The notes under the pieces are model-generated. The model was not told where the DNA came from. It did no database searches and worked only from the letters and a program-made list of their open reading frames with translations. A program made the position numbers and the translations under genes. From contig CAVXHK010000004.1 in NCBI GenBank assembly GCA_963761705.1, forward strand, positions 80,632-144,631: 64,000 bases of DNA, in the 5' to 3' direction. This stretch comes from an uncultured Verrucomicrobiae bacterium (GTDB taxonomy: Bacteria; Verrucomicrobiota; Verrucomicrobiia; Chthoniobacterales; JAATET01). Below are positions 22,063-53,262 of this stretch, piece after piece. Positions within the stretch are counted from its first letter, which is position 1, and every line of letters starts with the position of its first letter.

Positions 22063-22063
22063 C

Positions 22064-22117: not shown

Positions 22118-22128
22118 CTTTGAAATTG

Positions 22129-25383: not shown

Positions 25384-25391
25384 AAACCATC

Positions 25392-26786: not shown

Positions 26787-26816
26787 TCCTGGACCAGGTT
26801 CTTCGCGGAGTGAGGG

Positions 26817-27866: not shown

Positions 27867-27944
27867 GATTCCAAAGCACTAATCCAGCCGTCGAGCGTGT
27901 GGAAATCCATCCGGGCGAGATTTACCGCTAATTCGTTGGATGCA

Positions 27945-27958
27945 AGGAGAACTCTCCA
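27945..27958. promoter_or_regulatory. Palindrome AGGAGAACTCTCCA, a possible operator variant
   Basis: GGAGA-AC-TCTCC dyad in the AT-rich divergent region between the second LacI gene and the PEP-CTERM gene. Confidence 0.35.
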
Positions 27959-28022
27959 AAAAAATATTAAAAATTTTCGTTGCCGCAGCAAAGAATATAC
28001 GTGTAAGTAAATGCTAGATCTT

Positions 28023-29210
28023 ATGAAAAATACCCTACTCCTCCCAGCAATATGTTTTGGAATCCTCGGCATCTCCACATCAGCGCACGCTGTCAACCGC
28101 ACATTCCTGCCGGTAACGCCGAGCGACTATCTGGTTGGCGGAAACTGGTCAGGTAGCGCTATCCCGAGGTCGGGGGACGTCGGAATTATTGCGAGCGGAA
28201 GGACTGCCAATCTGTTTGGCGACTCTGGACTGACCAGCGTCGTGATTGTGGGTAACAGCAACACGACTGCAAGCGATGGAACGCTGAATTACACAGGGGG
28301 CGCCTACACCATCGGTCAGGTTTTGCTTGGTCGCAATGGTGGCAGCGCGTCGGAAGGGTCGACGGGGACGCTCGAAATGTCTGGCGGAAATCTCCGCGCC
28401 ACCGGCTTCTTCCGGGTAGGCAATGATCAGGCCACTCTCAAGCTTTCGGAGGGAGTTTTTAATCTTTCTGGCGGGAATCTTTCGGTCAGTGGATTGGACG
28501 GAATGAAGGTCGGAGAAGAAAGCAGGGGAACGATGACCCAGACCGCAGGAACCGTTTTGGAGACCGGAGGAGGCGTTCAGATTGGCCTTGCGGCTGGTGC
28601 CACCGGATCATCGGTTTCCGTGTCCGGCGGTAGCTTCGACACTACCCGTTTCATCAACGTTGGCAACGCTAGCAATCCGACGAACCGCACATTGAATGTA
28701 TCGGGTTCAGGGTCTGTGACCTGGGGTTCTAATGCCACTTCGGGATCCATTCTTTCCGTATACGGAAACATGAACGTGACCGGTTCCGGCGCGACTCTTT
28801 CCAGTATCAACACCAATGCGGGTGCGTTCAACGTGCGCTCCAGTGGAACGCTCCAGTTTAATCTAGCCGCAGACGGAAACGTTTCGCTGATCGACATCGC
28901 GGGTGCGGAAGTTGGTTTCCAGTCCGGCGGTTCTCTGGTTATTGATGGAAGCCTGCTTACGCTGGGTGCGGGGAGCTACGACTTCACGCTCATTGACCAC
29001 GCGGGTTATGCCTCGACGGGTGGGTTCAATGCCTCGACTTTGGCAACCAGCTTCACAAACTTCGGTCCGGACTACACGCCGAGCGTGAGCTTCAATGCGG
29101 GTGACGTGACGCTCAGCATTGTTGCGGTGCCGGAGCCTTCGACCTACGCGCTGATCGGTGCCGGGCTGCTGCTCGTCTGTGTTCTTCGTCGGCGGCGGCA
29201 GCTCGCGTAA
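28023..29210 (+). CDS. PEP-CTERM surface protein with Gly/Ser/Thr/Asn-rich beta-strand repeats
   Basis: Signal peptide; C-terminus VPEPSTYALIGAGLLLVCVLRRRRQLA. Confidence 0.95.
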   Translation: MKNTLLLPAICFGILGISTSAHAVNRTFLPVTPSDYLVGGNWSGSAIPRSGDVGIIASGRTANLFGDSGLTSVVIVGNSNTTASDGTLNYTGGAYTIGQVLLGRNGGSASEGSTGTLEMSGGNLRATGFFRVGNDQATLKLSEGVFNLSGGNLSVSGLDGMKVGEESRGTMTQTAGTVLETGGGVQIGLAAGATGSSVSVSGGSFDTTRFINVGNASNPTNRTLNVSGSGSVTWGSNATSGSILSVYGNMNVTGSGATLSSINTNAGAFNVRSSGTLQFNLAADGNVSLIDIAGAEVGFQSGGSLVIDGSLLTLGAGSYDFTLIDHAGYASTGGFNASTLATSFTNFGPDYTPSVSFNAGDVTLSIVAVPEPSTYALIGAGLLLVCVLRRRRQLA

Positions 29211-29239
29211 GCGAACGAACCCGGATTCGCACGATTTCG

Positions 29240-29280
29240 GCGGGCTGGGGTGGAGACGCCTCAGCCCGCTTTCCTTTATT
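29240..29280 (+). terminator. Intrinsic terminator-like hairpin after the PEP-CTERM gene
   Basis: GCGGGCTGGGG-loop-CCTCAGCCCGC followed by TTTCCTTTATT. Confidence 0.6.
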
Positions 29281-29284
29281 GGTC

Positions 29285-31852
29285 ATGCAATACTCCCGAA
29301 TGGTGACAGTTGTGCGTTGTCGCAGCGTGAGAATGCTGGCGCTGGTTGGAGCGGTAACTGCCGGGGTGTTCGGAAGTCCTTCGGCGATCGCTGACGGTGC
29401 TTTGGAGCGCCCCGCTTGGATTTGGGCGGGGGACACGCCGACGGCGGCGAGTTCGGCTCCGGCTGGGGAGGTCCGGTTCGAGCGAACGTTCGAGCTGCCC
29501 GCCGATGCGACCGTCGCGGAGGCGGCGTTTTTGATCGGCGTCGATAACCGGGCGACGGTGACGCTGAACGGCAGCGAAATCGGTCGCTTCACTGGCGGGT
29601 GGAGTCCGCTGGGCGAGGGGCGGCTCGGGGACGCGCTCGAGTCGGGACGGAACGAATTGGTCATCGAGGCGAGCAATGCGTCGGAGGGCCCGGCGGGTTT
29701 GTATTTCGATCTCACGATCCGGTTTGCGAACGGGAGGGGGCCGGTGCGGATCGTGTCGGACCGGACGTGGACGACGGGAAGCGGCCCGGCGGCGGCGGTC
29801 GCGCGCAACGGGGACGCGCCGTGGGGGTTGGTGATGCCGGCGCGGGAGGGTGCGGCGGCGTTTCCGGAGTATCGAGCGGAGGGGGGCGACCTGACCGCGA
29901 CGAACGCGATGCTGGCGCGCTTCCATCCGGCGGCGAACATCGATGTGGCGGGAACCTACGCGCTCGCGTGGCTTCCGCGGGCGATGCTGTGGGCCGGGGA
30001 CGTGGCGGCGGGCGGTCTGACCTCGACCCAGTTGCGAACCGCGAATCGGCTGCGGCGGATGAAGGTGGATGCGGACGGTTACGTGTCGTGTCACCAGCAC
30101 GAGGGACTGGCGCATTCGGAGGGCTGGCCGTTTCCGCTGCCGACGCAATCCGGTGGATTTGGGTTCTATTTCACCCTGGCGGGGGTGCCCTTCGGTGAGG
30201 AATTTCGGGTGCGTCAGACGGGTGACGTGGGCGGGTGGGAACTGTCAGGGGCAACGAGTGCCGGGGTGGACGCGGAGCGGGGATGGACGGTCGAATTGAC
30301 CGAGCCGAACGCGACGGTGACGTCGCCGGAGTTCTCGGTCGATGCGTTGGTCACGCCGTTCGTGCGGGTAAAGTGGGACGCGGCGGAGCTGCCGGCGGGC
30401 GGTGAGCCGTGGCTGGAGTGGACGACGGCTGCGGAGCCGGAATTCTCGGCGGAGCGGCGGGTCGCGTTTCCCGAGCCGGCGCCATCGAGCGCGGGGACGG
30501 TGGAAGATTTCAACGTGCCCATCGCGGAGGTCACGCGCGGCGAGGGAGCGATCACGCGGTTGCGGATCGGGTTCGGGAACGCCGGGCCGGGGCGGGTGAC
30601 GATCCAGCGGGTGTTTTCGGCGGTGGACTCGCGGCACTCGGTGAATAACGCGAATTATCTCATTGCCGTGGCGAACTACTTCGCCTGGACGGGGGACCAG
30701 GCGTTTCTGGAGGAAAACGGACCGAAGCTGCGGCGGGCTTTGGACTTCCTGCTCGATGAATTCGCGGTGCGGGAGGCGAAGCTGGTGCGAACGCCGTGGA
30801 TCGGTCACGACGGGCGCAGTGGCGTCGAGCGGACGCCGGAAGGGAAGAAAATCGTGAAACCCGGCGTGGGCGTGGGCGGGAATTACTGGGATCTGCTGCC
30901 CTTCGGCGGGGACGACGTGCTGGCGACGATCTACCTGCATCACGCGCTGGAGCGGGCGGCGGAGCTGCCGACCTTTGCCGAAGACGTGGCAAAACTGCGG
31001 GAGCTGGCGGCCGAGGTGCGTGGCAAATTTCAAGCGACGTTCTGGAATCCGGCGACCGGGCGGTTTGCGCCCATCGACGACACGGGGGCGTTTCGCGACT
31101 ACGGCTTCACGTTTCTGAACAACGAGGCGATCTTCTACGGCTTGGCGACCGAAGAGCAGGCGCGGGAGATCCTGGCGTGGCAGGACGGGAAGCGCGTGGT
31201 GGAAGGCGATACGTCGACGGGCGCGGACATTTACCGGTGGCGGTTCGCGCCGCGGGCGACAACGCGGCGCAACCTCGACTACTACGCCTACGTGTGGTCG
31301 AACCCGGAGGCCCTGCCATTTGGCGGTCAGGTGCAGGACGGCGGGGCGGTGCTCGGATTTTCGTATCACGACATCATGGCGCGGCTGCGGACGCTGGGAG
31401 CGGACGACGCGTGGCGGCGGCTGCTGGAGATTCAGGATTGGTCTGCGGAAGTCGAGGCTGCGGGCGGCGCGCGCGCCTACTACGCGGAGCCGGGGCGGGG
31501 AACCCTGCAAGGCGGGGGCACGGCGGGCGGTCTCGGGATCGACGAAGAGTTTTACGAAAGCGTGATGCTGCCATCGGTGGTGCTCGACGGATTCATTGGG
31601 TTCGAGCCGACGGCGGAGGGGTTTCGGATCGAGCCGCGGCTGCCGGACGGGGTGGATCGGCTGGGCGTCTCGAACGTGGCGTTTCGCGGCAGACTGCTCG
31701 ACGTGGAGGTCACGCGGGACGCCGTCGAAGTCAACGTTATCGCGGCTTTGGAAGGGAGTGAGGACGTCTCGTCTTCGCGTCTGGATTCTGCCGGTCGGGA
31801 CGGGGAGGCATTTCTATTCTCCATCGAGTCGCCCAAACCGGAAACATTATGA
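29285..31852 (+). CDS. Secreted multidomain putative glycoside hydrolase, (alpha/alpha)6-barrel-like, family unassigned; start uncertain
   Basis: N-terminal PAWIW beta-sandwich, an internal beta module, and a helical C-terminal part with YFAWTGD..FL, NYWDLLPFGG, FWN..TGRF and VQDGG. Confidence 0.65.
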   Translation: MQYSRMVTVVRCRSVRMLALVGAVTAGVFGSPSAIADGALERPAWIWAGDTPTAASSAPAGEVRFERTFELPADATVAEAAFLIGVDNRATVTLNGSEIGRFTGGWSPLGEGRLGDALESGRNELVIEASNASEGPAGLYFDLTIRFANGRGPVRIVSDRTWTTGSGPAAAVARNGDAPWGLVMPAREGAAAFPEYRAEGGDLTATNAMLARFHPAANIDVAGTYALAWLPRAMLWAGDVAAGGLTSTQLRTANRLRRMKVDADGYVSCHQHEGLAHSEGWPFPLPTQSGGFGFYFTLAGVPFGEEFRVRQTGDVGGWELSGATSAGVDAERGWTVELTEPNATVTSPEFSVDALVTPFVRVKWDAAELPAGGEPWLEWTTAAEPEFSAERRVAFPEPAPSSAGTVEDFNVPIAEVTRGEGAITRLRIGFGNAGPGRVTIQRVFSAVDSRHSVNNANYLIAVANYFAWTGDQAFLEENGPKLRRALDFLLDEFAVREAKLVRTPWIGHDGRSGVERTPEGKKIVKPGVGVGGNYWDLLPFGGDDVLATIYLHHALERAAELPTFAEDVAKLRELAAEVRGKFQATFWNPATGRFAPIDDTGAFRDYGFTFLNNEAIFYGLATEEQAREILAWQDGKRVVEGDTSTGADIYRWRFAPRATTRRNLDYYAYVWSNPEALPFGGQVQDGGAVLGFSYHDIMARLRTLGADDAWRRLLEIQDWSAEVEAAGGARAYYAEPGRGTLQGGGTAGGLGIDEEFYESVMLPSVVLDGFIGFEPTAEGFRIEPRLPDGVDRLGVSNVAFRGRLLDVEVTRDAVEVNVIAALEGSEDVSSSRLDSAGRDGEAFLFSIESPKPETL

Positions 31853-32520
31853 AAACACCCTCACCCCACACGCTTTGGCGTCTGCTGAACGGGCAAGCCA
31901 GAGGCTTGCGTTATTTTATTCTACTGCCGCTGGCGTTGCACGCGGCGGACGGGCCGACGCTCCCGAACCCGAGTTTCGAGGAACCGTCGATCCTGGAGCG
32001 ACCAGCCTACCTGACGCCATCGATGCCGACGTTTGCCGAGCATCGGTCGGAGCTGGGGTGGAGTTTTGGATTTTTTACCGGGATATGCCGGGAGGGCGTA
32101 TCGTTCGCCGAGGGAATCGACGCGGCGGAGGGGAGTCAGGTCGCGTTCCTGCAGGGCGATCCGGATACGAGCGGGCGCGACTTGAAGCTGCAGAGCGTCT
32201 TCGGCGTGGACGTCATTGGGTTGGAGGTAGGCCGGAAATACGCGGTGTCGTGGCAGCAGACGGCGCGGGTGTCGGACGCTGGTCAGGGGGCGCTGACGGT
32301 CTCGGTCAGCCCGGCCGACGGGAAAACGCCGCCGACCGTGCTGGAGGATCGCAAGGACGTGATCGCGCAGGGCGAGTGGGAGACGCGCCGCTACGAATTC
32401 GTCGCGAAGGCGGAATCGATGCGGCTCAACTTTCGCCACCACATCCCGCACCCGGAAAACGCGAATCCGAACAGCGAGACGACGCTCATCGACGACGTGC
32501 GGATTGAGAAGGCACGATGA
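31849..32520 (+). CDS. Secreted hypothetical carbohydrate-binding-like (DUF642-like) protein
   Basis: Signal peptide, LPNPSFEEP, EGSQVAFLQG and C-terminal LIDDVRI; ATGA overlaps on both sides. Confidence 0.75.
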   Translation: MKTPSPHTLWRLLNGQARGLRYFILLPLALHAADGPTLPNPSFEEPSILERPAYLTPSMPTFAEHRSELGWSFGFFTGICREGVSFAEGIDAAEGSQVAFLQGDPDTSGRDLKLQSVFGVDVIGLEVGRKYAVSWQQTARVSDAGQGALTVSVSPADGKTPPTVLEDRKDVIAQGEWETRRYEFVAKAESMRLNFRHHIPHPENANPNSETTLIDDVRIEKAR

Positions 32521-33995
32521 GCGCGGCGTTGATCGTGCGGCGTCGCGCGCTGGAATTCGTGGTCGCGGTGAGCGTGGCCGTGGTGAATTTCGCGGTTCAG
32601 GCCGGGGAGCCGCACCGCAATGTCGTTGTCATCTTCGCGGACGACATGGGCTTCGACCTGTCGTGCATGGGCACGCCGGGGATCGAGACGCCGAATCTCG
32701 ACCGGATGGTCGCGGCGGGAACGCTTTTCACCCGCGCCTACGCGGCTGACAGCGTCTGCTCGCCCAGCCGCGGGGCGTTGCTCACGGGAACGTTCTCGAA
32801 TTGGAATGGGTTGGATCGGCTGACTGCGAATGGGGGCCTGAAATTCCCGTCCATTGCCGTGAAGCCGTCGAAGCCGGAGACCTTCCGATCGGCGTTGCGC
32901 GAGGATGTGCCGACCTTGGTGGAGGTCCTGTCGATGCACGGCTTTTATCAGGCCATCACGCAGAAGACGCACGTCCAGCCGATGTGGAAATTCCCGTTCT
33001 CGCGGGGATTCGATTACCACAACAAGCCGGAGCAATACGATCGGCTGATCGACCAGGTGAAAACCGGTGCCGAAGGACGACCGTTCTTCCTGCTGGCCAA
33101 CGTGAGTCCGCCGCACCTTCCCTTCGACGCCCACCTCGAGCCGAACGGCCTCGTCGACGAGGCGGGGCGGCCAAAGAACGTCGATCCCGACGAGATCGGC
33201 GTTCCGGCCTACCTGCCGGACACGCCGGCGATCCGGGCGGACCTGGCGCGATATTTCGCCTGCGTCGAGTTGGCGGATTCGTGCGTCGGAGCGGTGATGG
33301 ACGGTCTGGAACGAAACGGGCTTCTGGAATCGACGCTGGTGGTCTTCAGTTCAGATCACGGCATCGCCTACCACCGCGGGAAGGTGTCGGCCTACCCGGC
33401 GGGTCTGCACGTGCCTCTGATCTTCCAAGGTCCGGGCGTGGCGGCGGGAAAGCGGTCAGCCGCGCCGGTCAGTCTGGTGGACGTGATGCCGACGGTCCTG
33501 AGTTATCTCGACATCCAAACCCCGGAGACGGTCCAGGGCACTTCGCTCTGGCCGATCCTGGACGGAAGCGCGGGGAAACTCGCGGGCCGACCTACCATTT
33601 TTGGAATGACGAACGAGCATTTCCTTGGGCGGATGGTCACGGACGGGCAATTTTATTACGTCCGGAATCTCACGCAGCCGCGCGGGAGCTGGGACAATCC
33701 GCCGATGAACGCGGACCTCTGGCAAGAGAAACCGTGGGGAAACAAGTCCTTCGCAGCGACCGTTGCGGCGAAGAACGAATCTCCGCTCGCCTATGAATTG
33801 TTGCGGCAGCTCGTCGAGGGCGATCTTCCCGAGGAGGAACTCTACGACCTCGAAGCCGATCCGTGGGCCACGGAAAATTTGGCCGCCGATCCCGAGCAAG
33901 CGGAAATCCTACAGAGGCTGCGTGATGAGATGAGCAAATGGCGCGAGATCACCGACGACGAAACTTATCTTCAAACGCGGACTTCGCCGAAATGA
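32517..33995 (+). CDS. Secreted Cys-type sulfatase (paralog of the 6630 gene)
   Basis: NVVVIFADD, GTPGIETPN, VCSPSRGALLTG, AITQK.H..P.WK.PF (shared with 6630) and SSDHG. Confidence 0.93.
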   Translation: MSAALIVRRRALEFVVAVSVAVVNFAVQAGEPHRNVVVIFADDMGFDLSCMGTPGIETPNLDRMVAAGTLFTRAYAADSVCSPSRGALLTGTFSNWNGLDRLTANGGLKFPSIAVKPSKPETFRSALREDVPTLVEVLSMHGFYQAITQKTHVQPMWKFPFSRGFDYHNKPEQYDRLIDQVKTGAEGRPFFLLANVSPPHLPFDAHLEPNGLVDEAGRPKNVDPDEIGVPAYLPDTPAIRADLARYFACVELADSCVGAVMDGLERNGLLESTLVVFSSDHGIAYHRGKVSAYPAGLHVPLIFQGPGVAAGKRSAAPVSLVDVMPTVLSYLDIQTPETVQGTSLWPILDGSAGKLAGRPTIFGMTNEHFLGRMVTDGQFYYVRNLTQPRGSWDNPPMNADLWQEKPWGNKSFAATVAAKNESPLAYELLRQLVEGDLPEEELYDLEADPWATENLAADPEQAEILQRLRDEMSKWREITDDETYLQTRTSPK

Positions 33996-34029
33996 AGTCT
34001 TTCCGTGAAACACCGAATACCCGCCTCGT

Positions 34030-34073
34030 AAGAAACCTTTCCCATTGACGCGGGGCGCGCCCGGCCCGACGGT
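34030..34073 (+). promoter_or_regulatory. Candidate operator AAGAAACCTTTCCC next to a putative sigma70 promoter for the Verru_Chthon cassette
   Basis: Motif copy at 34030-34043, TTGACG (-35-like) at 34045-34050, and a weak -10-like GACGGT after a 17-bp spacer. Confidence 0.55.
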
Positions 34074-34112
34074 GCCTTGCAATTCCCTTCACTTTCAGTC
34101 TCTCCCCCCAAG

Positions 34113-34826
34113 ATGCTCAAACCTCCTCTCCCTGCTGGCTCGTTCACTCGCTCGCATCGCGCCTCGGGTGGATTCAGTCTGGTCGAACTCCTCGTCGTGA
34201 TCGCGGTGCTTGGGCTGGTCGCCGCATTCACGGTCCCCGCGATCCCGGGGATGCTGCGGGCGAAGGGGGTCGCGCAGGCGGCGGCGGAGACGGATGGGCT
34301 GCTTTCTCTCGCGCGGGCGGAGGCCATGGCGCGGCGGACTTACGCCTACGTGAGCTTCGCGGAGGTGACCAACACCGACGGCAACCGGGAAGTGCGGATG
34401 GGGGCGGCGGCGGCGCTGGACGGCACGACTGACGTGTCGACGGCAAACCTCGAGCCGATCTCGCGGCTCGTGTCGGTGGAAAACGTGGCGCTCGGCTCGG
34501 AGGGGGAGATTCCCGCGGCGCTCTCGACCCGCGTGACCGATCTGTCGGCGGACGCGGACGACTACTTTGTGCCGGGCACGGCGGGGGGAAAATTCCCGAA
34601 TCGAGCCGCGTTCACCGTGGGTCGGCAGAGTTTCGTCGGCGGTCCGACGCTCGTGATTTCACCGCAGGGCGAATTGCTGTCCGCTCCCGGAGACGTCGAA
34701 TTTCTGCCGGTGGCGGTCGTGGGCCTCGTGCCGACGCGGGGCACCGTGAAAGAGACGAACGCGAAGAACGCGGCGGTCGTCGTTTACCTCGGCGGCTCCG
34801 GCGCGGTGGAGGTCTTGCAGCCATGA
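34113..34826 (+). CDS. Verru_Chthon cassette protein D-like (prepilin-type N-terminus)
   Basis: GGFSLVELLVVIAVLGLV cleavage/methylation motif and LSLARAEA segment. Confidence 0.8.
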   Translation: MLKPPLPAGSFTRSHRASGGFSLVELLVVIAVLGLVAAFTVPAIPGMLRAKGVAQAAAETDGLLSLARAEAMARRTYAYVSFAEVTNTDGNREVRMGAAAALDGTTDVSTANLEPISRLVSVENVALGSEGEIPAALSTRVTDLSADADDYFVPGTAGGKFPNRAAFTVGRQSFVGGPTLVISPQGELLSAPGDVEFLPVAVVGLVPTRGTVKETNAKNAAVVVYLGGSGAVEVLQP

Positions 34827-35329
34827 GACGCTCGGTGTCTCGGATCGCTCTCGTCTGCCGAGGGCGGGCGGCGTTTTCGCTCGTCGAGGTGACGCTGGCG
34901 GTGGGTTTGATTTCCTTCGTGCTCGTCGCGCTGCTCGGTCTGCTTCCGGCGGGTTTGAACGTGCAACGCAACGCGGTGCTGGAAGCGCGCTCCACGCAGG
35001 TGTTGAGCGATCTCGCGCAGGCCGTGCGGGGTGTCCGGTTGGACGGAGCGGTCCACCGATTCCCGGCTACGCTGGCGGAGGTCGCCGTGGGCGGCGGCTC
35101 GACGACGCTGCCGGTCGGCGTCGACGGGCTCGTCGACAACCCGGCGGATCGACGCGGCTCGGTGGTGATCGAGCAGCTCGCGGCTCCGGCGGGGAATCCG
35201 GACCTCCTGCCGGTGCGAATTTCGGTGGCCTGGCCGGCGGCGGCGACCTGGGTGGCTTCGGGCGGCGGCAAGTGGAACAAGGCGGACGGACACGTGGAAA
35301 CTTTTGTGTATGCGGAAATTCCTCGATAG
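34823..35329 (+). CDS. Verru_Chthon cassette protein B-like (prepilin-type)
   Basis: AAFSLVEVTLAVGLISFVLVALLGLLPAGL, the typical protein B N-terminus; ATGA overlap with D. Confidence 0.85.
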   Translation: MRRSVSRIALVCRGRAAFSLVEVTLAVGLISFVLVALLGLLPAGLNVQRNAVLEARSTQVLSDLAQAVRGVRLDGAVHRFPATLAEVAVGGGSTTLPVGVDGLVDNPADRRGSVVIEQLAAPAGNPDLLPVRISVAWPAAATWVASGGGKWNKADGHVETFVYAEIPR

Positions 35330-36236
35330 CGACCGACGAGCCTTCACGCTCATCGAGGTGCTCGCGGCGATGGCGGTGCTGTCGTTGCTGCTGGTGATGA
35401 CGTTTCAGATGGTCTCGCAGACGAATCTGGCCGTCGGTGCCGCCGGGGACGAGCGCGCCGCTCTGGCCACCGGGAGCGCGGCCCTGGACCGGATCGAGGC
35501 GGACCTCTCGACCGCGATGCGGGACCGCGGTCTCGCCCTGGTCGCTCGCGACGCCTCGGCGGGCGGGGGCACCGACAGCGCCATCGGGTTCTTGTCGCTC
35601 TCGCGACCGGAAGCCGAAGCGGCGTCGACGACTCAGCCGCGGGGTGCCCTGATCGCCTACGGGATGCGCGCGATCTCCGCGACGAGTGGCGGCACGGCTT
35701 TTTCCTACACCGGTCTCGAGCGGTGGCTCGGGCGGTTCGATTACGCCGACCAGCCGGGACCGGCCTTCGAGGAACTCACCGCCCAGGACGCCGCGGCGGG
35801 GGAATGGACCGCACTGGGGTCGGGAATCGTGAGATTCTGGGTCAGCTACGTGCTGGACGACGGGACGATCGTGCAGCAGCCGCCGATTTATCGGGTGGAG
35901 TCCTCGACGACGGGCAACCCAACGCCGTTCCTCGACGGGCGGGCAATGGCGACGAACTGGAACGCCGTCGCGACCTCGCCGGAGACCGCGGCGACGGCTG
36001 GCCCGCAGCCGGGTCCCTTCGTCCGGTCCCTGCTCGTCGCGGTTGCGGTGGTGAATCCCGGCACGCTGGCTCAGGCCGCCGATGCCAACCGACTGAATGA
36101 AGTCCGCTCCGACCTCGGGAATCCGGACGCCGGTGAGACGCCGCTGGAAGTGTGGGAGGCGGGCGTCGGCGACGTGGGTTTTGCGCCACTTCGCCAGAAT
36201 CTGCGGTTCTTTCAACGAAGCGTTTCCCTGGACTGA
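35310..36236 (+). CDS. Verru_Chthon cassette protein C-like (prepilin-type)
   Basis: RAFTLIEVLAAMAVLSLLLV, ALDRIEADL and C-terminal RFFQRSVSL. Confidence 0.82.
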   Translation: MRKFLDSDRRAFTLIEVLAAMAVLSLLLVMTFQMVSQTNLAVGAAGDERAALATGSAALDRIEADLSTAMRDRGLALVARDASAGGGTDSAIGFLSLSRPEAEAASTTQPRGALIAYGMRAISATSGGTAFSYTGLERWLGRFDYADQPGPAFEELTAQDAAAGEWTALGSGIVRFWVSYVLDDGTIVQQPPIYRVESSTTGNPTPFLDGRAMATNWNAVATSPETAATAGPQPGPFVRSLLVAVAVVNPGTLAQAADANRLNEVRSDLGNPDAGETPLEVWEAGVGDVGFAPLRQNLRFFQRSVSLD

Positions 36237-36240
36237 TCCT

Positions 36241-39200
36241 ATGACGACGACTTGCTCCCTGCGCCCGCCTTCTCTCCGTCGCGCCTCCGACGGCGTGGCG
36301 CTCGTCATCACTCTGGCGATGATCGTTCTCCTGACGGCGTTATTGATTTCGTTCTTCAGTGCGGTGACGGCGACTCGCAAGACACAGGTCGCGCGTAGCG
36401 GGGGGACGAGCGCGACCCTGCTCGCGCAGGGCGCGCTGGCCGCGATCTCGGGCGATCTGCGTGCAGAGATCCGGGAGAATTCGACCCCGGTCACCGTCGG
36501 CTCGCCGGCGTTGACGTTCCATCGTCCGAAGACGACCGCCGACATGCGACCGGTGCGGGCCCTGCCCTCCGCGGTCGGCTTGGCGGACGAGGATTTTTTG
36601 AATCTCGTCAAACAAAGCGGCGAGCCGTTCTCCAGCGCCGCCGCGATCTTCGATTTTGCGGCGACCAACAACTCGTCGACGGCGGCGCCCAACAAGCGCG
36701 TGGTGAGCCCGGCGCGGTGGACCGCGCCGATGCTCACGGGTGCGCCCTTTGCCGCCAGCCAGACGCCGCGCTGGATCTACGTGAACAGCGACGGCTACAG
36801 CGCGACGGCGGGCGCGACGACCATCGGGCGGGTCGCGTTCAACGTGTATGATGTCGGCGGTCTGCTGGACGCGAACGTCGCCGGCTTCGGCGCAATCAAC
36901 GGTGGCCAGACCGAGCCAACGGAGGTCCGCACGAAGGGCGACGCGGTGTGGGCCGACCTGCGCGTGCTTCCGGGGATCGCCGCGACCGCCTTTTCCTCCG
37001 CCGGAGTGGCGGCGCGGACGGCGTGGCCGCCAGGGTGGCGGCTGACGGGGGACTGGGGCGATTTCGACGTGAACTCGGCGGCGCGGCTCCATTACGAGCG
37101 ATCCGGTTGGCGGCGGCCCTTCGTGACGGCGGGCGGGGCGGCGTCCGACCGGATGTTTGCCTCGCGGCAGGATCTCGTCCGCTACGCCCGCGCGTTTCCA
37201 GGCACCTTCGTCGCGAATGCCGACGGCACTCTGCCCGCGCTTCAGTATCTCACGACGTTCAGCCGCGACCTCGACCGACCGAGCCACGAGCCCGATCCGG
37301 ATCGTCCGAAGGTCGGCGCGGACAGCCCGAGCGGTGGCAACGATGCGAACGGACTGGACAACGATCTCAACCCGTCGCTGCTGACGGAGGTCAAGGGTGA
37401 CGGAACGCTCGCCATCAAACGCCGCTTCCCGCTGTCGCGACTCGAGTTGGTCGCGACGCCGATCCCACCGGCGAACCCGGTCGCGTCCGGGACGGACATT
37501 CGGGAGTTTTTTGGTCTGGAATGGAACCCGGCGGCGAACCGCTGGATCTACGACCACGGAGATGCCGCCGACATCCTTCCGCTGGTCGATGTGCCCGCGG
37601 ATCGCGATCCCGATTTCTTCGAGTTGCTGAAGGCGGCGATCACGGTCGGCAGCCTTGGCAAACAGTTGGGAGTGACCTTCCCGGGTGCCCACGTTGGGCT
37701 GGCCGATCTGCCCGCCCGGCTGGGAGGCGTCGACGGATCGGTGAACTACCAGATCGTGCAGATCGCGGCGAACATCATCGACCAGGCCGACGCCGACAGC
37801 TACCCGACGCGCATCAATTTCGACGGTCGTGACTTCTACGGGCAGGAGGATTTGCCGGGGCTCTACCGGGTTCGCGAGCGCAATTTTCTGATCGGCACCA
37901 TCCCCGGCTTCGGGCCGCGACCGAACGACGCCAGCCCCCCGTATGCGCAATCCCTCCTCCAGGTGCTCATGCTCCAGCCCACGGTCTGGAATCCGCATTC
38001 GCCCTCGACGGGAATCGGTGGCGATGCGCCCACGGAGTTTCGAATCGTCGCGGATACCGTTACGCCCGTTCGCTACGAGGCGCAGTATTTCTGGCCGGCG
38101 GTGGTTCCTCCCGGGTCGCGTCCGCCGGTTGCCTGGACGTCGGATTTTTCAGCGCGTCCGAATGGTCCGAATTGTGATCGACCGATCTCCTACAGCGGCG
38201 GAGAGGGCGGGCTGAGCGGATTGGCCAGTGCCTCGATCACCTTCCAGGCGGACTCGAGCGCCTTTCGGCAACCCGTGGCGCTGGCGTCGCCGGGCCACCC
38301 GTCCGGCAGCAACGCGGTAGGATTTCCCAATTCGCCGGACATGGGAGTCAGCGACGCGGCGGCACCGGGTGTCCCTGACACAACGGTGAGCGTTCAGACG
38401 ATTGTCAACCGGCAGACTCCGGTGCCCGCCAACGTGGCTCACGACGCCCCGGCTCCTTCGCCCCGAGCCGAGGCGTTGGGATTCGTGGCCGGTTACCTGC
38501 CCGCGGGTCCGCAATATGGCATGCCCCCAAGCCTTGCGTATTACCTCAATCTGCGGAGGCCGCAGGGTGGACCGGTCTCCTTCAGCCTCCAATATCGGCA
38601 GGGTAGCTCGGATACTTGGTGGACCTTCGACAGACTCAGCCAGAGTCTCGCCGCGAACGAGCAATCCGCCGCGCAGATCCAGGCGTGGATGACGGATCGA
38701 ATCGATCCGCGCACCGACCGCTGGGGAAGCTGGTATTCCCTCGTCGCGGCCAACGTGCCGCAATACGAAAACTACGTATACAATTTCGAGCTGACTGCGA
38801 ACCCGGTCCCCGGTGCGTTCCCCGCTTTTCTCGCCAGGGATCCCGCGGGTGCCGCCGCGACGGGCTGGAGCGGGCTGGCGACGGGCGCGCAGTTTGGATC
38901 GCTCCAGCGAAATGGTCCGAGTGATTCTCTCCGCTACGCCGATCCCGATGGAGTGCGCCGGGGCGGGACTGCGAAGTTTGCCGTCGATGGGTCCAGCCCC
39001 GGCTGGCCGATGCACGAGGGCAACACCATGAGTCGTCCGACGATCCTCGACCGGCCCTTCCGCTCGGTCGCGGAGCTGGGCAATGCCTTTCGCGGAACGC
39101 CGTGGCGGAATCTCGATTTCATGACACCGGCGAGCGGCGACCGCGCGTTACTGGACGTCTTCCGGGTCGGGGAAGGCCCCGACGACGCGTTGGTCGCCGG

Positions 39201-39687
39201 GCGCGTGAATCTGAATACCCGGCAGGCGCCCGTGATCGCCGCGCTGGTGGCGGGTGCCGGACTGGTCGGCGGTGCGCAGATCGATGAATCCACCGCACTC
39301 GACATGGCGGCGGTGCTCACGGAATTCACCGCCAGCACGGACGCGGGGAAGGGGCCGCTGCGCGACCGATCCGAGTTGGTGGGGCGCTTCGTGAGTGGGA
39401 CAAATTTCGTCGGGGTTGTCAGTGATGACGACGATTTGATGGCCGATCTGCTTGATGGCTCCGACCAACCCATCGAGCGGAATCGCGACGTCGTCATGGC
39501 CGCGCTGGCGGACGCCGGCACGGTGCGGGCGTGGAATTTCCTCGTCGACATCATCGCACAATCCGGGCGCGTGTCGGACTCCGGCGACTTCATCCCGACC
39601 GGCGAGAGCCGACTCTGGCACTCCTTCGCCATCGATCGGTTCACGAATCAGACGCTCGATCAAACCACCGAAATCTCCCTCGAATGA
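36241..39687 (+). CDS. Verru_Chthon cassette protein A-like (large, PilX-like N-terminus)
   Basis: DGVALVITLAMIVLLTALLISF, PRWIYV, GRVAFNVYD, QIAANIID, RPFRSVAELG, GRVNLNT and GESR. Confidence 0.85.
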   Translation: MTTTCSLRPPSLRRASDGVALVITLAMIVLLTALLISFFSAVTATRKTQVARSGGTSATLLAQGALAAISGDLRAEIRENSTPVTVGSPALTFHRPKTTADMRPVRALPSAVGLADEDFLNLVKQSGEPFSSAAAIFDFAATNNSSTAAPNKRVVSPARWTAPMLTGAPFAASQTPRWIYVNSDGYSATAGATTIGRVAFNVYDVGGLLDANVAGFGAINGGQTEPTEVRTKGDAVWADLRVLPGIAATAFSSAGVAARTAWPPGWRLTGDWGDFDVNSAARLHYERSGWRRPFVTAGGAASDRMFASRQDLVRYARAFPGTFVANADGTLPALQYLTTFSRDLDRPSHEPDPDRPKVGADSPSGGNDANGLDNDLNPSLLTEVKGDGTLAIKRRFPLSRLELVATPIPPANPVASGTDIREFFGLEWNPAANRWIYDHGDAADILPLVDVPADRDPDFFELLKAAITVGSLGKQLGVTFPGAHVGLADLPARLGGVDGSVNYQIVQIAANIIDQADADSYPTRINFDGRDFYGQEDLPGLYRVRERNFLIGTIPGFGPRPNDASPPYAQSLLQVLMLQPTVWNPHSPSTGIGGDAPTEFRIVADTVTPVRYEAQYFWPAVVPPGSRPPVAWTSDFSARPNGPNCDRPISYSGGEGGLSGLASASITFQADSSAFRQPVALASPGHPSGSNAVGFPNSPDMGVSDAAAPGVPDTTVSVQTIVNRQTPVPANVAHDAPAPSPRAEALGFVAGYLPAGPQYGMPPSLAYYLNLRRPQGGPVSFSLQYRQGSSDTWWTFDRLSQSLAANEQSAAQIQAWMTDRIDPRTDRWGSWYSLVAANVPQYENYVYNFELTANPVPGAFPAFLARDPAGAAATGWSGLATGAQFGSLQRNGPSDSLRYADPDGVRRGGTAKFAVDGSSPGWPMHEGNTMSRPTILDRPFRSVAELGNAFRGTPWRNLDFMTPASGDRALLDVFRVGEGPDDALVAGRVNLNTRQAPVIAALVAGAGLVGGAQIDESTALDMAAVLTEFTASTDAGKGPLRDRSELVGRFVSGTNFVGVVSDDDDLMADLLDGSDQPIERNRDVVMAALADAGTVRAWNFLVDIIAQSGRVSDSGDFIPTGESRLWHSFAIDRFTNQTLDQTTEISLE

Positions 39688-40511
39688 ACCAGCTGCTTCC
39701 ATCTCGAATCCTTGCTCTGTCCCCACTGCTTTCCTTGGTGCTTCTTTTCACCCCGGAGGCTCGGAGCCAGTCGGACGCCGCAGCCGCCACCCTCGAAGAG
39801 CTTCGTGCTCCCGACAAAATGAAGTGGGAAGTCGTGGTCGAGCGTGAGGAGAAACGGGACAAACCAAAACGCTCCGCCGACGGCGCGCCGACCCCGCCGC
39901 GACCACCCGAGCTGACCGCGTGGTCCGGCGAGAAGGACGGCGACATCTACCGTGGCCAACGCGCCTACGACGACGGGACGACCGAGGAATTCTGGATGCT
40001 CCCGCGCATGCAGTTTTACCGTGCGCCTGGTGAGACGGAAGTCATCCGGCTGCTGCCCGGCGACACCAAGGCGGCGGATTTTTCCGAGAGCGATTTCCCC
40101 GAGCTTTATTGGGCGCTGGGACAAGCGCTCCGCGCCGAAGAGATCGACGAAGTGAAATTTCTCGTCGTCGAGATCGAAGGAAGCGCGATGCCGCTGACCA
40201 AGCGGGAACTCGCCGATCAGGAGCAGACGATGGCTCTGCTGCTCAGTGTCGGTGAGAAGCCCGACGACCTGATCCAGCCGGCCCGCCCGACGGGAAGGTA
40301 TCGTCTACTGCTCGATCCACGGACGCGTCTGCCGGTGCGGTTCGAGTCGCCCGATGCCGTTCATACCTACCGGTTTTCGCCCTCGCCTGGTCTGCGCGGC
40401 GTGATCCCGGAGGCATTCCGCGGTGCCATCCAATCGTGGGTGCAGGAATTCAACACCGCCGCCCGCGCACCGTCCGCGCCGAGGGTGCGACGCTCTCGCT
40501 CCACCCCTTGA
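39684..40511 (+). CDS. Secreted hypothetical protein translationally coupled to cassette protein A
   Basis: ATGA overlap at 39684-39687; signal peptide MNQLLPSRILALSPLLSLVLLFTPEARS. Confidence 0.75.
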   Translation: MNQLLPSRILALSPLLSLVLLFTPEARSQSDAAAATLEELRAPDKMKWEVVVEREEKRDKPKRSADGAPTPPRPPELTAWSGEKDGDIYRGQRAYDDGTTEEFWMLPRMQFYRAPGETEVIRLLPGDTKAADFSESDFPELYWALGQALRAEEIDEVKFLVVEIEGSAMPLTKRELADQEQTMALLLSVGEKPDDLIQPARPTGRYRLLLDPRTRLPVRFESPDAVHTYRFSPSPGLRGVIPEAFRGAIQSWVQEFNTAARAPSAPRVRRSRSTP

Positions 40512-40524
40512 CCCATTTCCAATC

Positions 40525-42024
40525 ATGACCATGAAAACTCAAAGTCTCTTTGCCATCGGCTTCATCGCCATCCTGCCATTCGTCGCGCCATCCCGCGCTT
40601 CCGCCGCCGAGCCCAGCGGGAAAAAGCCGAACATCATTGTCATCTTCACCGACGATCAAGGTTGGGCCGACCTCGGTGTGCAGGGACAGGTCGACGACAT
40701 CAAGACGCCGAATCTCGACCGGATGGCCGCCGAAGGTGTCAACGCCACCGCGGGCTACATCAGCGCGCCGCAGTGCAGTCCGTCGCGGGCGGGACTGATC
40801 ACGGGGCGATATCAGCAGGAGTTCGACTTCGAGCACATCCCCGACGGACCGCTTCCGCTCGACCAGGTGACGCTGGCGGACCGCTTGAAGGAGGCGGGAT
40901 ACGTGAGCGGAATGGTCGGGAAATGGCACCTCGAACCGAACGGCGTGAGCTACCGGTGGGCGAAGAAAAACCTGCCGGGTGTCGAGGCGAAGCCGGGCGA
41001 GCATCTGGCCATCCCGATGAAAGAGCGGTTGCGCTACGGGCCGGGTCAAAGGGGCTTCGACGAATACTTCTGGGGCGAGTTGGTGAATTACTACGCGAAC
41101 TACGACTTGAAGGGCGAGTCGCTGCGACCGGAGGGGCAGGGGGTAAAGGACACCCGCTTCCGGGTGGACGTGCAGACTGACGCGGCCCTGGCATTCATCG
41201 ACCGAAATCACGAAAAACCCTTCTTCCTCTACCTGTGCTACTTCGCGCCCCACGTGCCGCTCGAAGCGACGGCGAAATATTTGAGCCGTTTCCCCGGGGA
41301 GATGGCCGAGCGGCGGCGTTACGGTCTGGCGATGATGTCGGCGATGGACGACGGTGTGGGCCGCATCCTCGATCAACTCGATCAATACGGGATCGAGGAG
41401 GACACGCTGGTCGTCTACCTCAGCGACAACGGTGCCCCGTTGAATCAGTCGATGCCGGACACGAAGCCGATCGACACGAATGGCTGGGATGGCTCGCTCA
41501 ACACACCGTGGGTCGGTGAAAAAGGCATGCTGGCCGAGGGCGGCATCCGCGTCCCGTTCCTGCTGCGGTGGAAAGGCACGCTGCCGGCGGGGACGACCTA
41601 CGACGAGCCAATCATCTCGCTCGACCTGGCGGCCACGGCGCTGGCAATGGCCGGTCTCGAGCAGCCCGCGGAGATGGACGGCATCGACCTGTTGCCCTAC
41701 CTCACGGAGGCCGACGCGGCGGCGCCGGAGCGGGCGTTGTTCTGGCGGTTTTGGAGTCAGTCGGCCGTGCGCGAAGGGAAGTGGAAATTGCTCAAGGCCG
41801 ACGGCGAGGCGACGTTCCTCTTCGATCTGGAAAGCGACGCGCAGGAGACGAAAAACCTCCTCGCCGAGGAGCCCGAGATCGCGAAGGACCTGGAGGACAA
41901 GCTGGCCGCGTGGGCGGGCGGGCTGACGCCCCCCGGTCTCCCGAAGACTCCGCTCAACGTGCAGGAGGTGGGGTGGTATGAATACTTCTTCGGCGTGGGC
42001 GGCGAGCAGGGGTTTGGCAAATGA
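40525..42024 (+). CDS. Secreted Cys-type sulfatase (paralog of the 12908 catalytic domain)
   Basis: KPNIIVIFTDDQG and QCSPSRAGLITG; YFAPHVPLEAT and GEKGMLAEGGIRVPFL are identical to the 12908 protein. Confidence 0.93.
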   Translation: MTMKTQSLFAIGFIAILPFVAPSRASAAEPSGKKPNIIVIFTDDQGWADLGVQGQVDDIKTPNLDRMAAEGVNATAGYISAPQCSPSRAGLITGRYQQEFDFEHIPDGPLPLDQVTLADRLKEAGYVSGMVGKWHLEPNGVSYRWAKKNLPGVEAKPGEHLAIPMKERLRYGPGQRGFDEYFWGELVNYYANYDLKGESLRPEGQGVKDTRFRVDVQTDAALAFIDRNHEKPFFLYLCYFAPHVPLEATAKYLSRFPGEMAERRRYGLAMMSAMDDGVGRILDQLDQYGIEEDTLVVYLSDNGAPLNQSMPDTKPIDTNGWDGSLNTPWVGEKGMLAEGGIRVPFLLRWKGTLPAGTTYDEPIISLDLAATALAMAGLEQPAEMDGIDLLPYLTEADAAAPERALFWRFWSQSAVREGKWKLLKADGEATFLFDLESDAQETKNLLAEEPEIAKDLEDKLAAWAGGLTPPGLPKTPLNVQEVGWYEYFFGVGGEQGFGK

Positions 42025-44096
42025 AGAGTTTGGCGATTTTCGCGGTCGGGCTGTTGCTTGCTGGATCGGGCCGGGCGGAAATCGGTCTTGATCCGACGAA
42101 CTCGAACGATGTCGAGATCACCGAGGAGGCGAGTGGGATCTATTCCATTGTCACGACCGGCCACGATCCGTGGGTCGTGACGACACCCCTCCCCGCGGGC
42201 ACCGACGTCGTCGCGGAGCCGGTGCTGAGTTTTGAATACTTCTGCGCGGCGGGAGTGACTGATCTCACGGTGTATTTCGGTCCGCCTTGGCGCGAAGCGG
42301 CCAGCCTCTCGGGTGGCGCGATGGCCCGCGCGGAGACGTGGCAGCCCTTCGCCGTGGATCTGAGCAAGAACGAGTTGGCGGCAGAGGGGTTTCGGCAACT
42401 GCGACTCGACACCGGCGGCCAGCCCGGCGTGAAGCTGCAGGTGCGCGGCCTGCACCTGCGGGCACCGACAGCGGAGGAGCGGCAGGGAGCCGAGGCGCGG
42501 CTCGCGGCGTTGGAGGCCAAACGCGACGCGGCAAGGCGGATGCGGGGGTATCTCGACGCGAAGCTCCCCGGTGAGATCGAAGGTGTGCAGGTCGACGCCG
42601 ACACGGTGGAAATCACGGGTAAGGCGCCGCCGGACTCGTGGCTGGCAGAGATCGAACTGCACGAACAACCGTGGGCACTGGAAGAGTTCTCTCGCGTGAA
42701 GGAGTTGGCCGGAGGGGAATTTCGAATCGAACTGCCGCGGAAAGCCGGAGCGACGGATCGGATCTTTTCCCGCTGGGCCGTCGTGCGCCGGGTCGGCGAT
42801 GGGTTCCGTCTCGCCTCGCACGCCAAGGCCGCGACCGACGTCACGGGTGCGCTGCGTCGCGAACCGCCGACCCCGATGACGCCAGCCTCGAAGAAAGGCA
42901 TGGCCGGCGTCGATCTCGACGACGATCTGCCCGAACTGCTGGAGCTCGGCGTCCACAACATCAGCGTGAACTTCGTCCTCTCCGCGCTCCTGCTGAGGCC
43001 GGACGCCCGGGGCGGCATCGATTACGAATACGAAGGCGAACGGTTTCGGATCAACGAGCGGGCGTTGGCACGGCAGGATCGTATCGTCGAGTGGGCCACG
43101 AGTCACGGCGTTGTTGTCACCGGGGTCGTCCTCGTGCGGCTGCCAGTCGATCCGGAGCTGGCTGAGTTGCTCGCTTACCCCGGCGGCGGGGCACCCGGAC
43201 TCTACGTGATGCCGAACCTCGCCACGCCCGACGGCTCGCGCGCCTACCGGGCGTTGCTGGAATTTGTGGTGGAGCGGTATTCGCGAGCCGACCGGGAGTT
43301 CGGCTCGGTTGAACGCTGGGTGATGCATAACGAGATCGATCAGGCCTGGGTCTGGACGAACATGGGTGAGCAGCCGATGGAACTCGTGATGGACGTCTAC
43401 GTCCGGTCGATGCGGGCGATGCATAACACGCTGCGGCAATATGATCCGACCGCTCGGACGTTCATCTCGCTCACGCATTTTTGGACCGATCCCGCCGAGC
43501 CGGACTTCCGCCAATACCGACCGAGGGAGATGCTTGACCTGCTGGCTCAGATTGGCGAGGCCGAGGGCGATTTCGAATGGGGCGTTGCCTATCACCCGTA
43601 TCCCGAGAGTCTGTTCGAACCCGCGACGTGGAACGACACGGCGGCGACGTTCGACTTCGATACCAAAATGATCACCCCGAAAAATATCGAAGTGCTGCCC
43701 GCTTACCTCGCCCAGCCGCGGTTTCTCTTCAGAGGACAAACCCCGCGCACGATTTTGTTGACCGAGCAGGGCTACCACACGAAAGACGACTCGCCGGAGA
43801 CTCAGGACATCCAAGCGGCTGCCTTCGTTTACACGTGGCACAAGATCAGGCCCCTTCCGACAATCGAATCGTTTTTGAACCACCGTTGGAAAGACCACCC
43901 CGGCGAGGGCGGACTGCGACTCGGGATCCGCGGGTTTCCAGCGCCACCGGAGAAACCGATGGGCGACAAGAAGCGTTCGTGGGAAGTCTATCGCGCGCTC
44001 GACACGCCCGACGAGATGGATGAAACCGACTTCGCAAAGGACATCATCGGAACCAACAGATTCGAGGAAATTCCGCACGACGGCAAAATCGAGTGA
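42021..44096 (+). CDS. Secreted DUF5722-like protein, probable clan GH-A hydrolase with an N-terminal beta module
   Basis: Signal peptide, SKKG, WVMHNEID, VAYHPYP and ILLTEQG. Confidence 0.75.
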   Translation: MKSLAIFAVGLLLAGSGRAEIGLDPTNSNDVEITEEASGIYSIVTTGHDPWVVTTPLPAGTDVVAEPVLSFEYFCAAGVTDLTVYFGPPWREAASLSGGAMARAETWQPFAVDLSKNELAAEGFRQLRLDTGGQPGVKLQVRGLHLRAPTAEERQGAEARLAALEAKRDAARRMRGYLDAKLPGEIEGVQVDADTVEITGKAPPDSWLAEIELHEQPWALEEFSRVKELAGGEFRIELPRKAGATDRIFSRWAVVRRVGDGFRLASHAKAATDVTGALRREPPTPMTPASKKGMAGVDLDDDLPELLELGVHNISVNFVLSALLLRPDARGGIDYEYEGERFRINERALARQDRIVEWATSHGVVVTGVVLVRLPVDPELAELLAYPGGGAPGLYVMPNLATPDGSRAYRALLEFVVERYSRADREFGSVERWVMHNEIDQAWVWTNMGEQPMELVMDVYVRSMRAMHNTLRQYDPTARTFISLTHFWTDPAEPDFRQYRPREMLDLLAQIGEAEGDFEWGVAYHPYPESLFEPATWNDTAATFDFDTKMITPKNIEVLPAYLAQPRFLFRGQTPRTILLTEQGYHTKDDSPETQDIQAAAFVYTWHKIRPLPTIESFLNHRWKDHPGEGGLRLGIRGFPAPPEKPMGDKKRSWEVYRALDTPDEMDETDFAKDIIGTNRFEEIPHDGKIE

Positions 44097-49061: not shown

Positions 49062-49661
49062 ATGTATTGCGGAGCACGCCCCTTTGAAAGCCAGGACGAA
49101 ACGATCCGATTTTTGGCGGCCATCGAAGGCACATTTCGTCGGCGGGATCGCGCCCTCGTAACTCTGGGCCTCTACTCCGGATTGAGAGTCGCGTCGGCGC
49201 TCAGTCTTCAAGTGGGGGATGTCTATGACGGTCGTCGATTCCGAAAAACGATCCGAGTCGCACGTAAAGCCATGAAAGGGAAGCGGGCCAGCTTCGTAAT
49301 TCCTCTGCATCCACGCGCTGCGATTGCGATCGGTCGGTGGATGGTCGAGTTGCGTCGCCGTGGGATCAACCTCGACCCTCACCTTCCCATCTTTCTCAGT
49401 CGCCAGCGCGGCCACGCAATGACGGTGCGCATGGCTCAGACGATGATTGCCAAAGCCGTCAAGAAAGCAGGATTAGCGTCAGGGCTTTCCTCTCACTCGT
49501 GGCGAAAAACCTTTGCCATTCGGATCTACGAGGGAAGCGGGCATTGCCTAATGACGGTGGCGGAAGCGTTGGCGCATGGATCGTCCGATTTGAGGACCAC
49601 CGCGAGATATCTCCGGTTCAGGCTCACTGAAAAGGCGGACCAGGCAATTTTGAATCTATGA
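49062..49661 (+). CDS. Small tyrosine recombinase (catalytic domain only)
   Basis: RDRAL, SGLRVA, MKGK, SHSWRKTFA, LAH and TTARYL, giving the R-K-H-R-H-Y set. Confidence 0.92.
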   Translation: MYCGARPFESQDETIRFLAAIEGTFRRRDRALVTLGLYSGLRVASALSLQVGDVYDGRRFRKTIRVARKAMKGKRASFVIPLHPRAAIAIGRWMVELRRRGINLDPHLPIFLSRQRGHAMTVRMAQTMIAKAVKKAGLASGLSSHSWRKTFAIRIYEGSGHCLMTVAEALAHGSSDLRTTARYLRFRLTEKADQAILNL

Positions 49662-52492: not shown

Positions 52493-53262
52493 AGTTGCTG
52501 TTCGTGGGCGCTCGAAACTAGCAGCAGAGCCGGAAAGGTCGCGCTCACCGCTCGCTCTTGAGCCGGTTTTCGATTTCGCGTTGATGCCAATCGGCATAGC
52601 GGCTCTCAGCGTCGAGGATTCTTCGATAAAAGGAGGCGAGGGTGATGTTTCGTTCGCGGATCGCCACAGCTTCTTCCGCCGATGAGCGGCGATAGCGATA
52701 CGACTCCTTGAGTCGCATCGCTCGTGTGGCCTCTCTCTCGTAGACCGGCTTCGCGAAGGAGAGTCGTCGATACCCAATCGTAGGTGGACGGGCTGAGCGC
52801 ACCCGCAGATCGAAAGATGGCTTCAGAAAGGTCGGACTCGCGATGCCGTTGCGGGGGCCGATCAGTCGAGCGCTTGCGAGCAATCCATGGCTTGGTTTCG
52901 GTGAGCAGAGGCCCTCTAGGCAATCGGAGAACGTCGCGGATACCCCTGCAAGGCCGATGTGACGAGTGCGGGGTCCCCGCGATTTTCACGACCAATGGGA
53001 GGGGACGAGCGGCTGACCTTGGATCCTGATGGAGGTGCGGGTCGCGGGGGAACTTTGGATCTGTTTTTCCCAAGTTTTCGAGTTTCGCCCGAAAAACGCG
53101 GACTTCCGCGGGACAGGATGACCGGTTGCTCGCAAGGAGAAAGCGGCCCCACGGTTCTCCAGACGAGCCGCGCCAAAACCCATTGGCCCTTTCAAAAACG
53201 GATTTTAGCACAAGGCGTTTAGCACAGAGGGCTCCGGGTGGCCCGGAAACCCTGTATCCGCC

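Follow-up and report, generated by a model that had tools for sequence, protein, structure and literature searches.

How polysaccharide crosses the outer membrane without SusC/SusD in Verrucomicrobiota, which are major degraders of sulfated glycans and of those rich in rhamnose or fucose, is the question addressed here. It is raised by a 64,000-nucleotide stretch from an uncultured Verrucomicrobiae bacterium (assembly GCA_963761705.1, contig CAVXHK010000004.1, positions 80,632 to 144,631; hereafter the window), in which four prepilin-type genes, D-B-C-A, and a conserved fifth gene, E, form a cassette next to glycan-degrading enzymes. Judged from its sequence, this cassette is real, divergent and similar to the Verru_Chthon cassettes, and it sits under the motif of a regulon. 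We propose, with confidence about evenly balanced, that it encodes a tip dedicated to this locus, which a shared retractile MUL2 pilus would use to acquire glycan.

The cassette, a sulfatase and a DUF5722 protein lie in one run of seven genes at the end of a glycan locus of ~44 kb, with 117 bp free upstream of the D start. Successive gaps are -4, -20, +4, -4, +13 and -4 bp; within this range of -20 to +13 bp the tight coupling, read as an apparently continuous operon by an earlier, sequence-only reading of the same DNA, is borne out.

34113..34826, + strand: D, prepilin in the GspH/FimU position, divergent TIGR02596-like, with an N_methyl Pfam match
34823..35329, + strand: B, small prepilin in the GspI/PilV position, divergent TIGR02598-like, with a class III signal
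35310..36236, + strand: C, prepilin in the GspJ/PilW position, divergent TIGR02599-like, with a weak GspJ match
36241..39687, + strand: A, giant tip pilin of 1148 aa with a predicted GspK/XcpX fold and a variable beta-sandwich insert at ~residues 535-835
39684..40511, + strand: E, the fifth gene, with an N-terminal signal-like segment, predicted LolA/LppX-like
40525..42024, + strand: sulfatase, 55% identical to the sulfatase at 12908-14911
42021..44096, + strand: DUF5722 protein, putative glycoside hydrolase (PF18989, E 9e-111)

Class III signal peptides with E5 are present on D, B and C, and the N-terminus of A is a GspK/PilX-type hydrophobic helix without E5. The best NCBIfam match of each of the four pilins is a Verru_Chthon model, restricted to the N-terminus and below the curated cut-off (bits against cut-off: D, TIGR02596, 27/70; B, TIGR02598, 38.6/51.4; C, TIGR02599, 27.4/256.5; A, TIGR02600, 17.7/332.3), and we therefore regard the genes as a divergent five-gene subfamily. 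The Verru_Chthon identity first given to them holds for the adjacent A-B-C-D prepilin-type genes and the giant A, but not at the level of the TIGR models. As in Verru_Chthon cassettes, there are four prepilin-type genes, a giant A and several paralogous cassettes per genome; in contrast, the order here is D-B-C-A with a conserved fifth gene, whereas the cassettes of this genome that exceed the cut-offs are ordered B-C-A-D, and the window copy, below all cut-offs, is tied to a glycan regulon. The DUF5722 protein announced earlier is present, and its description as a hydrolase derives from two motifs, NE at residue 437 and TE at residue 581; it had no PDB match, and we take DUF5722 to be clan GH-A-like.

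An operator-like motif precedes the cassette, and two LacI-family regulators are candidates for its binding:

34027..34046, + strand: operator-like motif upstream of the cassette, 22.2 bits with a leave-one-out matrix
12659..12678, - strand: operator-like motif before a G8/beta-helix gene
12773..12792, + strand: operator-like motif before a sulfatase
15011..15030, + strand: operator-like motif before sugar isomerase and GH106-like genes (GH, glycoside hydrolase family)
19569..19588, + strand: operator-like motif before a run of sulfatase, GH78 and MFS genes
632..1663, + strand: LacI-family regulator (Pfam), candidate motif binder
26817..27866, - strand: second LacI-family regulator (Pfam), candidate motif binder

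The matrix was trained on the four other window sites, leaving the cassette site out, and both strands of the 3.5 Mb genome were scanned. Six sites reached at least 22.2 bits; five are those used for training and that of the cassette, and the sixth lies before ppdK, behind rhaA-glpX (L119, G000 C1:1681027; G000 is this genome). The operator claimed to be common to the cassette and the carbohydrate-active enzyme (CAZyme) genes was thus recovered. The ppdK site is a strong copy outside the mobile island described below, and a weaker site lies at window position 6526. This distribution fits a rhamnose-linked regulon. No sigma-70 promoter was found upstream of D.

A Pfam scan of 45 open reading frames of the window returned no TonB-dependent receptor, SusD or ABC transporter, as had been noted before for 44 kb of it, and two GPH-type MFS symporters. 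A dedicated TonB receptor just outside the window, which the sequence-only reading had named as an alternative route, was ruled out as importer, since the single TonB receptor of the genome (97.9% complete) is siderophore-like and lies on another contig. Among 13 genomes, TonB receptor matches ranged from 0 to 3 per genome and SusD was matched in none; four of the 13 had no TonB receptor match, one of them with 64 sulfatase matches among the matches listed. As in Bacteroidota SusC/SusD loci, hydrolases, sulfatases and regulators are clustered here with inner-membrane symporters and have a common motif, but the locus differs from them in having no SusC-type receptor and in the lack of SusD matches.

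The predicted model of A (pLDDT 91.2, pTM 0.90) is closest to the tip subunits of the type II secretion system (T2SS), aligning with XcpX (Z 11.8, root-mean-square deviation 4.6, 236/259 residues) and with GspK (Z 11.2, deviation 4.7, 257/280 residues). The third structural match was ComZ of Thermus thermophilus (6QVI; Z 7.7, deviation 3.0, 115 residues), of which, in contrast, the pilin core alone aligns. The model of A carries the hallmarks of a K subunit, a pilin fold with a helical insertion and no E5, and agrees with the minor pilin- or pseudopilin-like tip anatomy previously suggested. ComZ is a tip pilin of the competence pilus, carries a large insert and serves in the uptake of DNA. 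Compared with the T2SS tip GspH-I-J-K (enterotoxigenic Escherichia coli GspIJK, 3CI0; P. aeruginosa XcpVWX, 5VTM), the cassette has the same gene order and sizes, and A aligns over nearly the whole of GspK/XcpX, also without E5; however, A is about four times larger, with an extra beta-sandwich, and the cassette is a multi-copy unit standing on its own, away from the gsp operon. In PDB profile searches, the D and C families matched pilin N-terminal helices only and B matched nothing.

The insert of A is its most variable part, with a mean identity of 24% among 111 homologs against 46% and 50% in the flanking core, and it is a plausible specificity domain. Folded alone, it was most similar to generic Ig/C2 sandwiches (Z at most 5.5), and in the protein atlas it fell in unnamed clusters only. 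Foldseek searches with A and with the insert gave nothing at E 0.001 or better, and their top rows (leukocidins and others), with TM-scores below 0.15, were discarded as noise. Relatives of A number 447 at a threshold of E 0.001, and phmmer found no match between A and its four paralogs in the same genome. E directly follows A in 46 of the 66 loci with room for it, forms one family and is single-copy in this genome; it had no meaningful Pfam or PDB match, and its atlas neighbours are LolA/LppX/MucB-like, from which a LolA-like fold is predicted.

The association with glycan genes extends beyond the window. This genome has five cassettes, four of them in glycan (GH or sulfatase) loci of differing make-up: one among GH2/GH39/GH115, one among GH38/GH125, one among GH38 and three sulfatases, and the window copy. 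Two other cassettes of the genome exceed the TIGR cut-offs for A, C and D. By their titles, 71 of 72 related loci are verrucomicrobial and one is from Proteobacteria, and none of 14 control genomes had a cassette among the matches listed, in agreement with the multi-copy verrucomicrobial distribution stated earlier. In 13 of 31 genomes, chosen mainly for contiguity and including kin that are not independent, 15 of 48 A genes lie at most 10 kb from a sulfatase (2.5 expected) and 9 of 48 from a LacI-type gene (1.0 expected), among the matches listed; with this genome left out, the figures, on the same basis, are 11 of 43 (2.2 expected) and 6 of 43. Short weak A matches were dropped from these counts and N-terminal-only matches were extended by ~3.4 kb. 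Moreover, among genes flanking the 72 related loci, 30/214 are glycan-degrading or glycan-binding, against 3/131 in random stretches (Fisher p 2e-4), and 52/214 against 3/131 when sugar transport, catabolism and LacI are included (Fisher p 5e-9). The flanking set comprises 214 of the 227 nearest genes (L033 dropped, last 13 genes unscanned), classed from Pfam names; for the background, 20 random stretches with 131 genes in all were taken from seven other genomes. Per locus, an enzyme or carbohydrate-binding module (CBM) marker was found in 29/72 and any marker in 40/72. The link between cassette and glycan genes across relatives is strong but partial.

A FastTree phylogeny of 63 A proteins (rows above 950 aa) contains one supported clade of five, four of which stand beside GH38 or GH125 and the fifth beside GH5, and groups the window A with two rhamnosidase-linked A proteins and one linked to GH42/esterase. 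This match between clade and enzyme is equally explained by inheritance of whole loci and is therefore not counted as proof of specificity. Four orphan pilins also lie directly beside glycan genes (L002:2735-3475, L002:19123-19854, L003:16839-17537 and L007:14248-14877; two have weak DUF1559 matches), and most others are far from flagged glycan genes. One canonical A gene and one PilB-like gene have frame breaks (G000 C1:1785265-1785271 and C4:424372-424375), due to assembly error or to pseudogene formation.

Which machine would carry such a tip? A MUL2 locus 6-15 kb to the right of the window encodes two Amuc_1098 secretins over cut-off, PilM and relatives of Amuc_1100 and Amuc_1102. The genome also has PilB-like and PilC-like genes, a prepilin peptidase and four ATPases of the PilT family, of which three exceed the cut-off; the PilB-, PilC- and PilM-like genes score under their equivalog cut-offs. 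The parts of a retractile machine are therefore encoded (PilB, PilC, PilM, secretin, PilT, PilD), consistent with the shared pilus machine that the sequence-only reading had envisaged. The PilY1 profile PF05567 gave zero matches, and its controls were blank too. A Gsp T2SS operon on C1 has its own G-H-I-J-K run, of which the cassette is not part. The MUL2 secretin was present in 25/25 cassette-bearing relatives (of 30, among the matches listed). Genomes G018 and G019 have GspG and neither MUL2 nor cassette, and G014 and G029 have cassettes and PilT, with no secretin match except MUL2 and neither GspD nor GspG detected. A T2SS loss in G001, suggested by a GspG miss, was ruled out by the presence of GspD. 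In three related loci of one clade the cassette adjoins a PilB/GspE ATPase. Co-occurrence thus favours MUL2, on few independent cases.

In Akkermansia, MUL genes, pili genes included, are needed for glycan accumulation (PMC13174399) and, according to PMC12418764, for accumulation of mucin products; further pili proteins needed for colonisation are listed in bioRxiv 10.64898/2025.12.30.696933. The MUL2 locus of this genome resembles the Akkermansia machine (Amuc_1098-1102), for which a link to glycan use is published. However, MUL2 is described there as a conserved system of pili by which cells attach to glycans rich in fucose, with no tip complex or substrate-specific part reported and no mention of the cassette (PMC13174399), whereas the cassette here is a separate locus under its own motif. 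Literature searches by cassette name and topic found no description of the Verru_Chthon cassette in the titles and passages covered.

A parallel comes from haem uptake. The hemS-hmuTUV operon of this genome (L013:9346-14892, G000 C1:1261345-1266891) opens with a PEP-CTERM gene and a pilin instead of a TonB receptor. HemS was matched in 31/151 genomes of the order, and of 20 haem loci taken with long flanks (L151-L170), 18 had that pilin family and a PEP-CTERM gene; the G176 locus lacks the pilin and instead has a TonB receptor along with TonB and ExbB, and in one G255 locus the stretch taken showed no pilin and no receptor. The family is specific, its profile covering one pilin of this genome at full length and no other. 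In eight of the 18 genomes with the haem pilin, no TonB receptor was matched. A dedicated pilin co-located with haem-uptake genes, which is co-location and not transport, makes import likelier than the glycan locus alone would, and the operon provides a defined small ligand for telling import from export. PEP-CTERM genes also accompany the cassettes, at 0.4-6.4 kb from each of the five, and amount to 28/989 in related loci against 21/2972 genome-wide. That of the window is:

28011..29210, + strand: PEP-CTERM surface protein (PF07589), candidate cassette partner

A PEP-CTERM gene and an orphan pilin also occur among a peptide-binding protein, astA/astB, an M20 peptidase and ABC permeases (L015:3484-13208, G000 C1:2029-2039 kb), possibly another pilin-linked uptake locus.

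The whole locus is carried by a mobile island, bracketed by perfect 47-bp tRNA-Pro repeats 69.3 kb apart, and comprises two LacI genes, two GH78, a GH106-like gene, five sulfatases, two GPH-type MFS symporters and one PEP-CTERM gene. Tip and enzymes can therefore travel together, with the machine outside the island. The remaining features are:

1692..33995: rest of the glycan locus, with two GH78, GH106-like, trehalase-like and GH65/MGH1-like genes, four sulfatases, a GDSL esterase and two GPH-type MFS symporters
49062..49661: tyrosine recombinase, within the island
53262..53308: 47-bp direct repeat, 3' half of tRNA-Pro, with its twin at G000 C4:64544-64590, 16 kb left of the window

According to the mechanism that we propose, D-B-C-A would assemble into a tip complex resembling GspH/I/J/K, with the giant, variable A as its cap. 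A LacI repressor would bind the motif, and the tip would be switched on with the rhamnosidase and sulfatase genes. It would be mounted on the MUL2 machine rather than on the Gsp T2SS, with specificity supplied by A, E or the PEP-CTERM protein. The tip may then take hold of glycan and deliver it to the secretin or through it, and PilT retraction would move this cargo into the periplasm, where sulfatases and hydrolases bearing signal peptides would cut it, the two MFS symporters importing the products. A broader possibility, which we advance tentatively and regard as somewhat doubtful, is that in Chthoniobacterales and their kin TonB receptors have largely been replaced by one retractile MUL2-type pilus and secretin re-tooled per nutrient, with tips encoded beside the processing genes and regulated together with them. 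Verru_Chthon-type tips would then serve polysaccharides, and single dedicated pilins with PEP-CTERM partners would serve haem. If true, the re-tooled MUL2 pilus would be a general TonB-independent import route across the outer membrane. The locus provides a testable role for the functionless Verru_Chthon cassette, a likely machine (MUL2, tied to mucin use in Akkermansia) and a regulon motif.

Several observations weigh against the proposal of a glycan-acquiring pilus tip. In none of the 72 related loci did the matrix find a convincing motif site before D. The fifth cassette of this genome (D-B-C-A; L019:5828-12129, G000 C3:458.8-465.1 kb) lies outside any glycan locus and converges on a PEP-CTERM gene; its coupling to the two Amuc_1102-like genes that follow it speaks, however, for the MUL2 machine. 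No cassette stands near a sulfatase or LacI gene in G016, G017, G021, G025, G010 or G011, a sulfatase occurs in just 4/72 related loci and 10/38 long loci have no marker of any kind; the enrichment for CAZyme, sulfatase and LacI neighbours anticipated earlier was found, but not for every cassette. Since the locus is on a mobile island, co-occurrence is inflated by shared inheritance. As to the machine, G014 and G029 belong to one genus and are 91% and 95% complete, G023 and G026 have MUL2 without a cassette match, and in a phylum sample 16/16 cassette-positive genomes had both machines; with four candidates scored per genome and all positives having both, this sample does not discriminate. G190 has a haem pilin and a TonB receptor ~2.7 kb apart. 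Finally, the insert of A had no lectin or CBM match by fold or sequence, and the adhesin or lectin role once assigned to A is not supported so far.

The main rival is export of enzymes, in which a dedicated pseudopilus tip recognises the enzymes or PEP-CTERM proteins of the locus and pushes them out through a secretin; E would be a periplasmic carrier, digestion would take place at the cell surface, and porins would admit the small products. We consider this rather unlikely. T2SS GspK/XcpX complexes contact exported proteins, and the closest folds of A are these export pseudopilins, which also counts against acquisition by the pilus; the proximity of PEP-CTERM genes to all five cassettes points the same way. 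In PMC13274419, a pulG-like pseudopilin with 67 homologs in the genome lies inside an alginate cluster, a pseudopilin was raised on alginate and T2SS release of alginases is proposed. However, the Gsp T2SS already has its own minor pseudopilins, cassettes occur with PilT in the two genomes where GspD and GspG were not detected, and export alone would leave the crossing of the outer membrane by haem unexplained in the eight genomes without a TonB receptor match.

Improbable in our view is that the tip serves adhesion or sensing only, tethering the cell to glycan particles while transport takes another route. Attachment to fucose-rich particles is indeed how the MUL2 pilus has been read, with MUL1 as the Sus-like importer (PMC13174399), which again speaks against our proposal, and type IV pili of a Chthoniobacteraceae genome were read as attaching to insoluble substrate (PMC11596606); the variable distal domain of A would also fit an adhesin. 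On the other hand, the locus yielded no outer-membrane importer of another kind, four of the 13 genomes had no TonB receptor match and the ligand of the haem operons is soluble. Still less probable, and in fact very unlikely, is that the cassettes are interchangeable surface-variation modules gathering in mobile islands with no functional tie to the glycan genes. The position of the locus inside the tRNA-Pro island, the many cassettes without a glycan neighbour and the scattering of rhamnose-linked A proteins over several clades would agree with such passengers, but a copy of the regulon motif precedes this cassette itself, translational coupling ties it to two enzymes, and four separate cassettes of this genome each lie among hydrolases.

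Some further features were observed. At the start of C3 (L120:479-12267), genes of anoxygenic photosynthesis (puhC, puhB, puhA and bchM, L, H, B, N and F) abut rplK at the contig end, and reaction-centre L/M had no match in the genome; this is most likely a chimeric join, and a phototrophic verrucomicrobium may be the alternative. Window positions 44100-53336 form a low-GC (54%) island end, in which a 1279-aa open reading frame (44779-48618) had no Pfam match. A G8 and CEMIP-like beta-helix protein is encoded at 9580-12591 (- strand), under the same motif as the cassette. A small secreted protein (19603-20196) shares 41% identity with the N-terminal domain that the sulfatase at 12908-14911 carries as a fusion, and both genes are downstream of a copy of the motif.

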